A stretch of 64,000 nt of DNA from Carcharhinus longimanus. Its lineage: Eukaryota. Numbering within the stretch: the first letter of the stretch is position 1; the number at the start of each line of letters is the position of its first letter. Shown here piece after piece: positions 6,345 through 59,124 of this stretch. The stretch spans positions 99,001,445-99,065,444 of the forward strand of contig JASCQW010000027.1 of the NCBI GenBank assembly GCA_030264375.1. Direction: 5' to 3'. A program made the position numbers and the translations under genes. Below the pieces are notes generated by a model. The model was not told where the DNA came from. It worked only from the letters and a program-made list of their open reading frames with translations, and searched no databases.

Positions 6345-7787
6345 GGCTATAGCTGATGTTTGTCTTGGTGTGCGTCCCTGGGAACAGCACATCGAGCACA
6401 GAGTCATGGACCTGCTCAAAATGAGCCTTGATAAAAAAACACCTTGTCTCTCTCCACATCTTCTTTGCAAAGGCACATTCCACTGGGAGGTGGGCAATGA
6501 TCTCTCATCCCACTGCAATCACTTTGAGAACAGGTGGGGTGTGTAGGAAGGATCTGATAGGGAGGGCCTTTCTGGCCACCCCCTAAACCAGGTCTTGTTG
6601 CTGGTTTAAAGTTCAAGTGGTCAGGTGACTTTGACAGTCTGCTCAAGAACCATCCAACAGGTTTCACCATCTCCTTTTCCCACAGAGCCGCCAGCTTGTT
6701 GTGTGCAGACCACTGCCTGATGGATTTGTGGTCAAAGGTATATTTTTTTTTACATAGATTTTTCCCCGAGGCCAGACCTGGCCAGGCGCATCCTTCGCAA
6801 CACTGGGGACAGGTAGAAGGTCAGTAGTGTTTGCATACGAGGATTTATATACAGCTTGATGCAGCAACACAAGGTGGCCAGCAGGATTAGGGCAGGCTGG
6901 GCACATTTCCCCCCTTTTATCTGAAGGTTTGTTCACCTCATCCCTGTGAACGCAATCCATCTTCTACCTCTAGACGGTTGAAAATGGCTCAAGTGATCAC
7001 CACAGCACAGGAAGTGAGAATGGGCCAACTCTGTGGCAAGTCCAGCAACATCAAGAGTATCTCACATTTGATAACCAGGTTTTTATCTGCAATAGAGAGG
7101 GAGCGTCACTCCCACATACCCAGCTTTTGTCAAATTATACCTATTCACTCCTTCCAGTTTTTAATGCATGTCTTGACCCCTCTGAACCATATCCACAGCA
7201 CCTTCAGGCAGTCTGACCTGACAGTGAAGAGGACAAGGAATTAGTCAACCCAGTTTGCAAAGGACATAGCTTTACTGTTACCACCAGGGCCAGTTCTGAC
7301 TGATCACAGCTGTTATCAGCCTGGGCAGCAGCAGTGGATCCAAGCAAAGGACAGTGACATTGTTCATGTATAGGGAGGTGCCCCACTGCCAGGTATTGTC
7401 ACTCCTCTTATGCCCCAATTAGAATCATATAATCCTACAGTGCAAGAGGCAGCTATTTGGCCCATTGAGCTTGCACTGACCACCATCCCACCTAGGCCCT
7501 AACCCCAAACTCCATGCATTTACCCAAGCTAGCTCCCATGATAATTGGGAGCAATTTTGCATGGCTAATGCACCTCATCCACACATCTTTGGACTGAGGG
7601 GGGAAACCGGAGCACCTGGAGAAAAGCCACGCAGACACAGGGAGAACATGCAAACTCCATACAGTCATCCAAGCCAGGAATCGAACCTGGGTCTCTGGCA
7701 CTGTGAGGCAGCAGTGCTAATCACTGTGCCACCATGCCGCCCAGGAAATTTTCAGATTTTCATCCATTGACTGTTTGTGTGGAGCAG
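6345..7787 (-). mobile_element. Tx1-clade LINE ORF2 relic (RT to CCHC zinc knuckle), 5'-truncated and interrupted by a SINE
   Basis: Minus-strand pieces in order: VNGxKSENF, GIRGVTIPGSG, SLYMNNV (YMDD site), VRSDCLKVLWIWF, RSLSIADKNLVIKCE, CxxxDCSG-ETIAHLPVECAFAKKMW, LFPGTHTKTNI. Confidence 0.85.
7420..7742 (-). mobile_element. V-SINE (HE1-like), near full length, inserted in the Tx1 relic
   Basis: Head gggcggcatggtggcacagtgattagcactgctgcctcacag and tail on the minus strand. Confidence 0.92.
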
Positions 7788-7814
7788 CTTCATCTTAGCC
7801 AAAAGGCCCAGATG
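7788..7814 (-). pseudogene. U2 snRNA 5' fragment (nt ~5-31) fused to the Tx1 5' junction
   Basis: 24/27 match to the reverse complement of U2 nt 5-31. Confidence 0.75.
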
Positions 7815-7866
7815 GTGTTTTAAAACATAGCTTCAAATGAAGACTTCTATCAAATGTAGGATCTGG

Positions 7867-24760: not shown

Positions 24761-24864
24761 CAAATGACAAACTTAAGAAGGGAAGTGGTCTGAGGAAAGT
24801 GAAGCAGGAAAACAAATGACAAACTTAAGAAGGGAAGTGGTCTGAGGAAAGTGAGGCAGGAAAA
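24761..24864. repeat. 52-bp tandem duplication
   Basis: caaatgacaaacttaagaagggaagtggtctgaggaaagtga[a/g]gcaggaaaa x2. Confidence 0.95.
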
Positions 24865-25296
24865 ATGTGCCCAAGGACGAAGGAAGAGGAGATTTTTAAG
24901 TACAACATCGAGCTTATTGGATCAAAAAGCATTTAAATGTTTTTACGCTGTGAAAAGTGTTTGTTAATACATAACAAAGTTAACCCAATGTAAAACAAAC
25001 TTTAGTACCTTCAAATGAAAAAAATCAAAAATCTTCCTCACTACTCTTACGAAGAGAAGAGAGTCAATAGTATTTGATGCGTCTACAGATAAAATGATAC
25101 CTTCAAAGAAAATGGGACAATTTTCCAACATCTTGCTCTAGAGCCATGTTTCACTGTTTAAACAGATCTGCAATAATTTAATCCCAGCTCTTTGCAACTA
25201 AATCTTCAGAAAGTACTTATAATGTTGGTAGAGCATCTGTGCATTTGGTGCAAATAATGATTAAATGACTATTACAATGGAAAAGTTGTTACTGAC

Positions 25297-25420
25297 TTGT
25301 CCTTTATTTCGAAGCGTTCATGTAACCACCTCTTCAGGAATATAGCTTCCTCTGGAACTTCTGTCACATCCACACGCTCAAAGAAAATATGTATCCTTGG
25401 ACACTCCCTGCACAAGAATT
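25297..25420 (-). CDS. AGPAT5: AGPAT5 penultimate coding exon
   Basis: EFLCRECPRIHIFFERVDVTEVPEEAIFLKRWLHERFEIKDK; 124 nt; CAG acceptor, GTCAGT donor; phases 1/2 join both flanking exons in frame. Confidence 0.97.
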
Positions 25421-42414: not shown

Positions 42415-42423
42415 AAGAATGAA

Positions 42424-42637
42424 CCTTACCACCAACCCAAACCTTCAGGGCAATTAATGCTGCCACTGCCAACAATACCCTCACCTGATGACTGAGTAAA
42501 CATACGAGCATTTTGATCCATCATATTTAACCTCACCACCAACCCAAACCTTAAGGACAATTAATGCTGTCACTGCCAACAATACCCTCATCTGATGACT
42601 GAATAAACATACGAGCATTTTGATCCATCATATTTAA
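42424..42637. repeat. 107-bp tandem duplication
   Basis: Copies 42424-42530 and 42531-42637 with a few substitutions. Confidence 0.95.
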
Positions 42638-51952: not shown

Positions 51953-52233
51953 AGGGAGGCATGTGCTGTGAAACAATGGTTAGTGTTGCTGCCTCATAAC
52001 TCCAATTCCGGCCTCAGGTGACAGCCTATGTGGAGCCGCATGATTTCCCTGTGTCTGCATGGGTTTCTTCCGGGTGCTCCGATTTTCTGCTACAGTTCAA
52101 AGATGTGCAGGTTTGCCCAGGGGCATCAACAGGGTAAATACATGCCGCTGGATAGAGTCTGATTGGGATTGCTTTTGGTGCAGGCTCAATGGGCAGAATG
52201 GCCTCCTTCTGCACTGTAGGGATTCTATGATTC
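51953..52233 (+). mobile_element. V-SINE (HE1-like)
   Basis: gggtttcttccgggtgctcc core; ggcctccttctgcactgtagggattctatgattcta tail. Confidence 0.88.
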
Positions 52234-52429
52234 TAGATGAAAAGTCCTTGAGGCTACTCGGGCCATGGCAGGGTGAACAGATTCCATCTATGCTTTCTTG
52301 CAGCATATCATATAATAAACAATGAAAACNNNNNNNNNNNNNNNNNNNNNNNNNNNNNNNNNNNNNNNNNNNNNNNNNNNNNNNNNNNNNNNNNNNNNNN
52401 NNNNNNNNNNNNNNNNNNNNNNNNNNNNN

Positions 52430-54317: not shown

Positions 54318-54657
54318 TGTACTGTGTTTATAAAAGCCATGCCAGCACCTTAAGGCCACGACTGCTCAGCCCTATAAACAATCAAAATTACTAGTTGGTG
54401 CTGAGTTAACTGTGGTATAAAAGGTTAATAGATGGGATATGTGAATGTATGACAGATGCAAACTATTCAAGACTGACAGCCACATTATATGAGAAATCTT
54501 GGCTTTCTAATTAGAATTTTGTAACCTGTTTACATGTGGTACTGATAAACAAGTGTTAAGCAGACCCCAGAACATAGCGACAGTCTATCTACCTACTAAC
54601 CAAGTACCACACCGAGAAGTCAAAACGGAAGGACCATTTCAGAACATGGTGGCGGCA
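54318..54657 (+). mobile_element. Putative Gypsy 5' LTR (TG...CA, ~54318-54646) and primer-binding site
   Basis: aaca|TGGTGGCGGCA at 54647-54657, ~120 nt upstream of gag; the LTR start is a guess. Confidence 0.6.
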
Positions 54658-54777
54658 ATTAAGACATCAATGCAAAAAAAAACATCAGTGTTATCGACGG
54701 GACCACAGCGCGAGGAAAACTTTGAAAGCAGTTCATACAAAAATTAACGGAATGAGGCAGCACACTGAAGTGAGGTA

Positions 54778-56420
54778 ATGATGACCGTACCTGTTGAGTA
54801 GTCCCCTACCCTTGCCCCGCCTGTTTGACTTCCTTGGGGCCTGCAGAGGCGCCAGCAGGAGTTATGGAAGTGTCATTTTCTCCGATACCAAGCAGCAGCA
54901 GGCCTTCATGAAAAGGAGCAAAAGCTTCAAGTCAGTTCCTTTCTTTATGCGACAGGTCCAGTAGCAGACAACGTTCTCCTAAGGCAGGGGGTGCAGGAGT
55001 CCACTGCAGGCTTTAAGTCCATTCTTAAAGCCTTTGTCATTTATTTCAGGCAAAGTATGTTTTAATCAGCGTTCACAACCACCGAGGGAAAAATTGAATT
55101 ATTTCTCACCAATCTATATCATGAGCAAGTTCTTGGGCACTGAAGGATGAGCTAATCAATAATCGCATAGTTTTGTGTTTCCAGGATGAAAAGCTCTCCA
55201 ACTTCTGGCAGACAAATGATGATATTACTTTGGATGAAGTGGTACACTATGCGAGTCAGGCAGAGCTTAGAGCGTTTAACTAGTGCAAATCAGTGTGATC
55301 TTGAGACTTCACATGACTCAACTGACTGTGTAGGTCCAAAGGCAGTGGCCCCACCCCAACCACAAGAAATTTTGCCAAACCAAGCAAAAGGATAGGAAAC
55401 TCCATGCTGGCATGCCACTTTGAGATGCTTGGATTGTGAGGCAAAAACTCATCATAGACACCACAACTGCCAAGCCAGGGTGCAGAATGCTTCAAGTGTA
55501 GCAAAACTGGACAATTCAAGCAATTCTGCAAATCCAACTATTTTAATCGAAATCAATGAAGCATTTATGAAACAAAGAAGTGTAAAGTCAAGAAAAATGA
55601 GAATCACAGAACCTTTACAGTGCAGAACGAAGCCATTCAGCCCATCAGTCTGCATTTGCTATCTGAAAGAGCATTCCACGTAGTCCCACTTCTCCACCTT
55701 ATTGCTGGAAGCTTGCATAGATATCTATTCAATTTCCTTTCGAATAGCTCGACTGAATCTAACTTCACCACCCTCTCAAAGTTTGTTCCAGCCTCCAAAC
55801 ACCCTCTGTGTGAAAAGAAACTTCTCACGTCTCTTTTATCAATTATGTTGAATCTGTGCCCTCTAGCTCTTGATGCTCGCAAGTATGAACAGTTTCCCAC
55901 TATTTAGCTTAGCCACACCCCTCAGGATCTTGAGCACCTCCATCACATCTCCTCTCACCCTTCTTTTCACTAAGGAACTATGTTCCAAATTCTCCGTTCT
56001 ATCTTCATAGCTACAGTTCTTTATCCCTGGAATTGTTCTTGTGAACTTCTTCTGTACTCTCTCCAATGCCTTCACATTCTTACTCATGCATGACGCCCAG
56101 AACTGGTCACACTATTCCAGATTAAAAGTCTTGGTACAGATTATTTATTGGTCAGTTAAAGTGCAAGTTCAATGCTTTAATACTACCCTTAATGATGATA
56201 CTGGTAAAGTTATTACTAGTAGCATATGAGCAAATGACCTTGGCTGGCTTCAGCCAATGACCTCTTCATTCATCAGACATCAAATAAGGTCAAAGCAGCA
56301 GATACCTTCCAAACAAAGGCAGGATTAGTAGCTTGTTTCTTTTAGCAACAAGGAATGACGGATCATTGATTTTATGTTCTGCACAATGTTGGAATCCTAG
56401 AAAAAAAAATAGATGATGCC
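54778..56420 (+). mobile_element. Gypsy LTR retrotransposon gag and aspartic protease relic, interrupted by CR1
   Basis: WKCHFLRYQAAAGLHEKEQKLQVSSFLYATG; FNQRSQ; LKDELINNRIV...LSNFWQTNDDITLDEV; double zinc knuckle CLDC..H....C / CFKCSKTGQFKQFCKS; protease WSVKVQV...DTG (56197-56205). Confidence 0.88.
55600..56120 (-). mobile_element. CR1 3' fragment nested in the Gypsy relic
   Basis: KNVKALERVQKKFTRTIPG; agaatcacagaa tail. Confidence 0.9.
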
Positions 56421-57731
56421 CATCATTTGAACGACTCACTGTCTTCGACAATCTTCAATCTTTTGTTTAGAAGTAGTGGGAATTCAGCTTTCAGAAGCAA
56501 GTTCCTTTCTTTCACAGAGACACCATTAGAGACCAGGGAGGAGATGGAAGATATAAATCTCTCATCTCTTCAGGAAATAAGGTCAGAGGTGGTGAATGTA
56601 GAAAGTACTGCAGCAGATGATGACTATCCCCATGAACACCTGTTGGACCTGAACTCGTTCTTCCTACAAAGTGATAGGGAACAATTACTTGTTGTACTGA
56701 GTGATCTTTAAGAGGTTGAGATCCAAAGGGCTGATTTACCTTTCTGGTTGACATACACACCAAATAAAGTTTCTCTTGTCTTTTTAGAACAGTTAGCTGT
56801 GTTGGTCATGGCTGGGCAGCATTCAGATCTTTATTGCCTNNNNNNNNNNNNNNNNNNNNNNNNNNNNNNNNNNNNNNNNNNNNNNNNNNNNNNNNNNNNN
56901 NNNNNNNNNNNNNNNNNNNNNNNNNNNNNNNNNNNNNNNGCTGGGCAGCATTCAGATCTTTATTGCCTAGCCTATTTCCTGTTGTCTTGCCTGAATCCAG
57001 GTCACAGTCCATCGAGGATGACACTGCTAAAGAGCTGGTAACTTCCATGGTGAAAGTCAAATGACACCCATACTTCGTTCGCTGAAAGTCTTCTTCCCTC
57101 CATAGCTGAAGGTCAACACAGATCCTAAGGCAGAATCTTCACCACTTTTAAAGCTGCAAATTTCTGTACAATAACTTTGTCCCACAGTCTACAGCAAATT
57201 CATCTAATCGTCATTGCCTACAGAAAGTAGCCAGTCATCCTGAAATATCATCCAGAAATCTTAAAGGAACTTAGATGATTCAGGAAAAAACTTGCTAAGT
57301 TCAATGAGATCTTGGATCTCAATGCTTTTTCAGTCATCGATACAGCAGTGGATGACACAGCAATGAAAGTCTTCCCTGGAGTTGAAAATCATTCAACTTC
57401 TGAAGCCCTTTCTCAGCGTGTTTTGAGGAACAAGTTCCTCAGAGTTTTCTCAGTTCTTCTCTTCTAATTCCAGGAGGGCCAAAGATTGATTCCCTTCTAA
57501 TTTTGGGGTGTTGAGGTTGAGCGTCTTCAATCTTCACTCCTGGATCCATCTTTTGTGAAAACTTTTTCATTGTCCTTGTAGTCGAGTCATCCTGCAGCCT
57601 ACAATCTGCTTCTCAACAATGCTGCTAAAGTAATGCCCCATGCTGCAGATGATATCCAAATAGATGCAAAAGAAAGTCGTCATGTCTTCAAGACATCTTT
57701 CCCAAGGGCTAAGAACACTGTGGAAAATTAA
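56421..57731 (+). pseudogene. Decayed ~400-codon ORF of unknown origin fused downstream of the Gypsy protease
   Basis: One plus-strand frame has only 9 internal stops over ~410 codons (hand count) and protein-like composition; no plus-strand RT, RNase H or integrase motifs. Confidence 0.55.
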
Positions 57732-58009
57732 TCCTTCAGGATTGTCGTTTGACGAGGGGAAGAATAGGAGTTGGGTGGCATCTGTAGCAGTAAAGTTATA
57801 GAAATGCAACGTAAATAGTTAAGAACATAGTTTTGTGTTGTTGTNNNNNNNNNNNNNNNNNNNNNNNNNNNNNNNNNNNNNNNNNNNNNNNNNNNNNNNN
57901 NNNNNNNNNNNNNNNNNNNNNNNNNNNNNNNNNNNNNNNNNNNNNNNNNNNNNNNNNNNNNNNNNNNNNNNNNNNNNNNNNNNNNNNNNNNNNNNNNNNN
58001 NNNNNNNNN

Positions 58010-58125
58010 ATCGGGGGATTTGTAGGGTAAATATGTGAGTGTATGGGGATAGAGCCTGGGTGGGATTGTGGTAGGTGCAGGCTCAATGGGCCGAATGGCC
58101 TCCTTCTGCACTATAGAGATTCTAG
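58010..58125 (+). mobile_element. V-SINE tail after a gap
   Basis: gggattgtggtaggtgcaggctcaatgggccgaatggcctccttctgcact. Confidence 0.85.
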
Positions 58126-59124
58126 ATGATGCATCACTGACATCAGTCTGTCATGTGCTCGACTCTGAAGAGAGAGGTTGGAAATGTGCTGAGGGGCAAT
58201 GAATTTCCTTTAACTTGTCTGGGTGTAGTCTAACAAAGAAGTATTAAACAGAAATCAGAGTAGTCTACAAACCAAGTCCCACACCGAGAGTCCAAGATAC
58301 AAAACCATATCTCAGAACATCAAGGAAAGAAATTAGCCAAAACTTCTATTCCTGATCTGTACATACCGTTCCCTACTGGAATGGTGTGTGAATAGAATCA
58401 AACTACCAGTTAAATAGTTTGTAAACATTTACCATCAAGCCTCACACAATAACAGTCATCATTTGGGTGAGATACTTGAAACTATTTCCTATCAAGGAAA
58501 CAACATCTTTAGAAGAATCAACAAAAACTAAGCCAAGGCATTCTGCAAGTCTACCCTGTTGAAAAAGCATCAGCAGAAAACTTCATTACTAACTCAATGT
58601 TATCTAAGAAGTGCACGCTAACTGAAAAGCTACTTCCCGCTTTAACAGTTTTGACATTAACTAATTGTTTCTCACTGCTCTTATCTTCATGCCTAATGCC
58701 TCTGCACTCGGCTCTGAAATTTATTACATGGCAGGGGAAAAAGAAAATCAAAATCATCCCCTACAATATTTTCACAAGAATAATTTCCAGGAAATTTTGC
58801 TGATTTGTTCTAACAATATTTTTTAAGTATGATTATTGAAAATTACTTAAAATGACTATTCCCCTTAAGTAAACAAAATTGTCTTTTCACATCGATTTGA
58901 TGGGTGTTTCAAATAGAAAATTAGAATTTCACTAGAATACAATCAATAGTAAAGTGATACAAACTAAACTTTTGAAGCTAACCTCGACCGAACAGTTTGA
59001 GGCTATTTTATATCAATGTGGATTTACCACAAGTTTCTGCACCAATTACTTCTATAGTTTAAAAAAGATGAAGTGCAACATTGTCATATCGCTTGAAAGA
59101 TGACCAAGAACATCTCAAAGGGAA

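Follow-up and report, generated by a model that had tools for sequence, protein, structure and literature searches.

The window analysed here, i.e., a stretch of 64,000 nucleotides from the Carcharhinus longimanus genome (GenBank assembly GCA_030264375.1, contig JASCQW010000027.1, positions 99,001,445 to 99,065,444 of the forward strand), contains one decayed, dead copy of an old multi-copy LTR retrotransposon family. This family was probably a non-autonomous Gypsy lineage which carried gag, an aspartic protease and, in place of reverse transcriptase (RT), RNase H and integrase, an orphan reading frame of ~460 codons, hereafter X, and which spread with the help of enzymes from autonomous Gypsy relatives. 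Its members combine two LTRs with TG...CA ends, a primer binding site (PBS) and a polypurine tract (PPT), and they were amplified despite having no RT, RNase H or integrase.

Structure of the element in the window

The element lies on the forward strand with both ends present, as an LTR-PBS-gag-protease-X-PPT-LTR unit. The 5' LTR (54411..54646; 236 bp, TG...CA) has ends which agree with the LTR ends of other copies; the preliminary description of this stretch had correctly recognised an LTR end and a PBS, but started the element at 54318, ahead of the LTR. The PBS (54647..54658; TGGTGGC...), which we take to be of the tRNA-Leu type, follows the LTR directly, has the same start after the LTR end in copies L187 and L213, and is degraded in several others. 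The gag region (54778..55611) is broken by stops and frameshifts and carries, near its end, the two zinc-knuckle-like motifs that had been described before. It is followed by the aspartic protease (56146..56444), frameshifted in this copy and with its DTG near 56197, and by X (56445..57731), which here contains stops, frameshifts and deletions and ends with a stop codon at 57729-57731. A PPT was read from the sequence at 57754..57779, and a G-rich tract likewise precedes the 3' LTR in other copies.

The 3' LTR (57783..58319) is interrupted by a gap (57845-58009) and by a SINE/CR1-type tail (~58010-58128); the 3' end of the element, thought earlier to be hidden by the gap at 57845, is therefore present, with gap and tail inside the LTR. 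The two LTRs of the window copy are 77% identical over 115 aligned nucleotides. When five-base flanks were compared by eye for a target-site duplication, three of five bases matched in the window copy and in L174 and four of five in L229, all on heavily decayed flanks.

Gag and protease are separated in the window by a later insertion of ~510 bp in antisense orientation (~55612..56121, reverse strand), which is absent from the family profile and private to this copy; the preliminary description had passed over it. It is presumably the 3' fragment of a CR1-type LINE (a label given by eye); its end matches repeat tails at 52189-52234 and 58086-58123, and a Pfam search with it returned no match. 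A second interruption, at 56811..56939, is an assembly artefact composed of a 100-N gap and one copy of a 29-bp duplicate. Contigs from three of four public sequencing runs join 56810 straight to 56940, which bears out the earlier advice to remove both, and the fourth run yielded no spanning contig. Near-exact two-copy repeats occur in the window at 24761-24864, 42422-42637 and 56811-56968, the last being this gap artefact.

Several frameshifts and deletions cause the family frame to run through all three frames of the window copy, which is ~180 nt short of the family ORF within X. The frame first described as an ORF of ~400 codons was indeed long and poor in stops (9 in 392 codons, where the two remaining sense frames have 25 and 26), but it coincides with the family frame only at 56532-56837, 57321-57428 and 57525-57728 and departs from it over most of 56945-57318. 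The claim that this ORF continues the protease frame holds for the family and fails in the window copy, where the DTG sits in a different frame, and the length is better given as ~460 codons for the family.

Copy number and age of the family

The family is multi-copy, with more than 100 matches in this genome. DNA queries from X and from gag each matched at all 40 places scored, out of 122-198 candidates, mostly at 64-82% identity, and two natural X protein fragments, with 241 and 210 candidates of which 150 each were scored, gave at least 112 and at least 109 matches, respectively. We retrieved 40 long stretches, 20 around gag hits (two of which were already known to carry X) and 20 around X hits, and the protease-X junction was contiguous in 18 of the 40. 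Of the two readings offered in the preliminary description, a one-off capture is contradicted by these counts, and a non-autonomous Gypsy family carrying cargo agrees with them; the copies, the junctions and the 3' LTR that it had proposed to search for were all found. Among the 20 gag-side stretches, X was present over at least 100 nt in 14, over 49 nt in one and absent from five, and RT was seen in L179 only, behind a second gag.

Copies have a mean pairwise identity of 0.70 (2313 pairs), and the two LTRs of a copy are 0.68-0.80 identical in the 13 pairs obtained from 17 tried. A tree built from 29 copies has the shape of a star: its terminal branches have a mean length of 0.21, its internal ones at most 0.015, apart from one pair at 0.065. 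A star-like tree of copies which are ~70% identical points to one master, one ancient burst and neutral decay since. The same locus is present in sequencing runs of several organisms, the most distant of those compared differing at 49 of 1280 bases of an internal stretch, which would make the burst roughly ten times older than that split. The runs listed as carrying the locus included no RNA runs. A low shark mutation rate, 7e-10 per generation, is given in the part of the source consulted (PMC10587355).

Some loci depart from the full-length layout. L174, L176, L180 and L188 are internally deleted members which keep one or both LTRs and part of gag and in which X is reduced to its 3' end, and they are further non-autonomous derivatives of the family. 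L177 contains a full family copy and, head to head with it, an inverted second LTR-gag piece (1253-1838 and 1901-2743), and in L005 the 5' part of X occurs twice (1732-1935 and 2672-2763), a local duplication. In L179 (G000:C61:62376700-62384700), a second, different Gypsy element, which has a gag, a protease and an RT of its own, comes after the family gag and, judged by eye, is likely nested.

An open frame through protease and X, and probably gag

The frame of the master was examined in an alignment of 113 de-duplicated copy segments, in which we called a stop shared when half of the copies or more had it. Over 557 codons, no shared stop falls in the frame that continues that of the protease. 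Within X (457 codons), this frame again has none; the two remaining sense frames have 19 and 28, and the three antisense frames 22, 16 and 20 (P ~5e-10). Since every other frame has 16-28 shared stops, the master must have carried a genuine open frame through X. The per-copy stop rate within X is 1.45% in this frame vs 4.7-7.0% in the other frames, base composition is codon-periodic (G1 0.29, G2 0.10), and the terminal stop just before the PPT is common to 32 of 39 copies.

The protease motif noted in the earlier description is real, with D kept in 20, T in 23 and G in 25 of 32 copies, and the family profile matches the protease of the pol-bearing relative L167 (E 1.9e-7 in the profile control; E 2e-6 in a separate comparison). 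The gag frame is also free of shared stops across copies. Of 23 copies, 11 have a gag-to-protease distance that keeps the phase, which makes this the modal class, and the other 12 have other length changes; the modal spacing suggests that gag and protease would also have shared one frame. The master likely encoded a single Gag-PR-X protein of ~860 codons, without RT, RNase H or integrase.

Whether the protein sequence of X was constrained was addressed in two ways, and neither dN/dS nor common variants gave a detectable signal of constraint. Pairwise dN/dS is 0.76 for X, 0.66 for the protease and 0.60-0.75 for the non-coding LTR control; the ratio cannot separate X or the protease from the LTR, and since the protease control has no signal either, the test is uninformative. 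Among common non-CpG variants, the synonymous class is enriched in gag (27 synonymous, 26 other) and protease (9 and 4) but not in X (17 and 42, p 0.26), in a test which is itself weak, as off-frame controls are partly enriched and as transitions and decayed CpG confound it.

Gypsy relatives and a possible helper

Going by sequence similarity, the gag and protease of the family are homologous to those of Gypsy elements. Over 57 aa, the window gag and the open gag-protease frame of L151 share 46% identity (E 2e-16), and the family protease profile matches the same locus at E 2e-19. L151 (G000:C72:6723000-6732000) carries this frame of 457 aa at 6700-7848 on the reverse strand, followed by a truncated RT start, and is much better preserved than the X family; its Pfam matches to PNMA and to an aspartyl protease are below threshold. 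The pol-bearing relatives L152 and L167 share only ~40% gag identity with the family. We take the family and its relatives to be Mag-like Gypsy elements, a clade label that goes by the style of gag and protease, as the family itself has no RT.

The family resembles autonomous Ty3/Gypsy elements with two zinc knuckles and a single gag-pol frame (L151, L152 and L167) in its gag (~40-46% identity), in its homologous protease and in having gag and protease in one frame. It differs in what comes next: these relatives continue into RT (partial in L151) or into remnants of RT, RNase H and integrase (L152 and L167), whereas X takes their place in the family. No autonomous partner sharing the LTR ends of the family was seen in the 40 stretches fetched around gag hits. 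Small unplaced contigs, e.g., L061-L086 and L191-L200, contain many intact Gypsy pol ORFs (up to 1421 aa), with copies on large scaffolds mostly broken; young elements are one possible explanation for the intact ORFs on short contigs, and foreign DNA within the assembly is another.

Homologs and origin of X

As far as the aligned copies allow us to judge, X is a real orphan ORF, with no detectable relative in the databases searched. All searches used queries that are neutrally decayed fragments. X reached a best E of 0.03 against Pfam, and the first-described frame of the single window copy reached 0.056. Three profiles which together cover X gave nothing at E<=10 in the PDB, where the single-copy frame had a best E of 0.82. 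A comparison of X with 5.8 billion proteins returned no homolog, in searches that the tool itself notes to be weak, nor was there one among 652 candidates for the single-copy frame, and a profile of the N-part of X alone had no match among 1.84 billion protein representatives. AlphaFold models of two X pieces (pTM 0.30 and 0.31) consist of a few helices and coil, are of low confidence and had no match among viral folds, and a search of the ESM Atlas with a 59-aa stop-free stretch gave a best score of 0.80, i.e., chance level. Internal repeats, at which collapsed MAFFT alignments had hinted, were considered and rejected, as ten sliding profiles gave no hits vs two in shuffled controls; two alignments (A4 and A5) were set aside.

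One explanation of the position of X is that it represents the element's own pol (RT/RNase H) in degenerate, frameshifted or inverted form, since it sits where pol belongs and one of its antisense frames resembles RT motifs by eye. We consider this very improbable. Comparison of X with Gypsy pol by tblastn and blastx across 101 loci gave no match on either strand, as a check proposed with the preliminary description had called for. Six-frame protein profiles of X against 50 proteins, mostly natural pol ORFs, had a best E of 0.012, as against the 1.9e-7 obtained for the protease in the same comparison, and the only match of a DNA profile of X among 75 other loci was a deleted family member. The antisense frames are, moreover, those with 16-22 shared stops. 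An inverted pol was also rejected as a candidate in its own right, with 15 frame reads lacking a Pfam match, an antisense frame lacking a homolog and no match to pol.

The preliminary description favoured a captured viral gene, i.e., an endogenous viral element (EVE), and saw in the motif ELRxFxxxxAKxxExxDL a loose likeness to a Mononegavirales nucleoprotein. In its general form this explanation holds that X was once the gene of a virus, with an RNA or a DNA genome, which template switching joined in frame to gag-protease and which multiplied together with the family from then on. It would account for an intronless, coding-like frame that replaces pol exactly, and disordered viral proteins can escape sequence search. 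The CpG observed/expected ratio of X is well below that of gag (0.43 vs 1.54; GpC control 0.99 vs 1.56), which may hint at a provenance unlike that of gag, but no more than hint, given that CpG is just as scarce (0.33-0.86) in other pol-bearing Gypsy stretches of this genome. The earlier translation of ~57130-57320, with most of the nucleoprotein-like motif, lies off the family frame, and only LKELR (57261-57275) falls inside it. X lacks a match in Pfam, in the protein collections searched (with its N-part in the case of the 1.84 billion representatives), among viral folds (with low-confidence models) and in the PDB, which presumably includes nucleoproteins of bornaviruses and other Mononegavirales. 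In these searches X shows neither the sequence nor the fold similarity to a viral protein by which a Mononegavirales nucleoprotein EVE is recognised, and nothing supports a viral origin. Viral ORFs inside LTR elements have been published (PMC5408684, in the part consulted), but in the light of the above we regard this source for X as unlikely. The consulted part of a survey of vertebrate non-retroviral EVEs contains nothing like the family (PMC11521997).

Just as unlikely, in our estimation, is a host source, in which a piece of mRNA, e.g., a long low-complexity exon, was retrocopied into a Gypsy element by LTR-mediated retroposition. The composition of X would suit it, being rich in Leu (13%), Ser (13%) and Glu (9%), acidic and CpG-poor, and LTR-mediated retrocopies are described as common in animals and often as encoding in-frame proteins (PMC5131818, in the part consulted). 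Against it, two X protein queries in the own genome (150 scored of 241 candidates and 150 of 210) returned broken copies at 30-71% identity and no intact frame among the top-scoring matches; no intact host source of the kind that would have changed the earlier interpretation stood out, and public proteins gave no homolog of X.

Proposed mechanism

We return to the reading that we prefer, in which a pol-less Gypsy element carried X. X likely entered in a single event, either a template switch or a recombination, and took the place of RT, RNase H and integrase. The resulting master would have supplied its own Gag-PR-X polyprotein and had its own RNA packaged, with Pol co-packaged from a helper; the RNA would be primed at the PBS, then reverse transcribed and integrated by the Pol of an autonomous relative. 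The protease could release X. Judged from its composition only, X was likely an acidic and largely unstructured tail, or else a product cut free by the protease, with little constraint on its amino acids. A frame kept open in X would allow translation to reach the stop beside the 3' LTR. After insertion, every copy would have decayed neutrally.

A bolder version, which we put forward as speculation and think rather doubtful, is that the RT, RNase H and integrase of an ancient vertebrate Gypsy element gave way to a foreign gene, joined in frame to the end of the protease, whose source was either a virus, now extinct or never sampled, or a host gene since lost, and that a gain conferred by X (in packaging, in recruiting Pol or in escaping host defence) drove the spread to hundreds of copies. 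If true, cargo-bearing non-autonomous LTR elements would gain a new class, and the family would be the fossil of an otherwise unknown protein family.

Comparison with known systems

Non-autonomous LTR elements usually lose their coding capacity or keep Gag alone. The closest likeness is to the TR-GAG elements of plants, which are described as multicopy elements of <4 kb with LTR, PBS, PPT and a single Gag ORF, without RT, RNase H or integrase (Chaparro et al. 2015, PMC4350172, in the part consulted). The shark family shares the LTR, PBS and PPT, a single ORF that includes Gag, the lack of RT, RNase H and integrase, the multicopy state and a length of <4 kb. TR-GAGs, however, were selected for lacking similarity to aspartic proteases, whereas the shark family keeps a DTG protease followed by ~460 codons, and with more than a Gag-only ORF it is not a TR-GAG.

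Foreign ORFs inside LTR elements are known from bdelloids, with an ORF3 that encodes env, a GDSL esterase or a DEDDy exonuclease; in the sections consulted these are third ORFs beside an intact gag-pol and have recognisable homologs (PMC5408684), unlike X, for which no homolog was found and which continues the protease frame in the place of pol. In LTR-mediated retrocopies, too, the two halves of an LTR element enclose intronless sequence of foreign origin (Tan et al. 2016, PMC5131818), but those in the part consulted have a parent gene; no parent was found for X, and the chimera was amplified to >100 matches. We found no description in the literature of a gag-protease-orphan ORF architecture in animals, and such a family could already sit in Repbase or Dfam.

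A family that retained gag and protease, and whose master had an open orphan frame of 460 codons where pol would be, suggests that high copy numbers are within reach of LTR elements which lack pol and bring along new proteins of their own. Every copy that we saw is dead, any function of X is an inference, and the near-term bearing of the family is on transposon classification; it would gain weight if X turned out to be viral or functional.

Elsewhere in the window, positions 25218-25415 on the reverse strand match Pfam Acyltransf_C (E 4e-6, over the cut-off), which fits the acyltransferase gene that the preliminary description had named AGPAT5. The Gypsy element lies on the strand opposite to this match.
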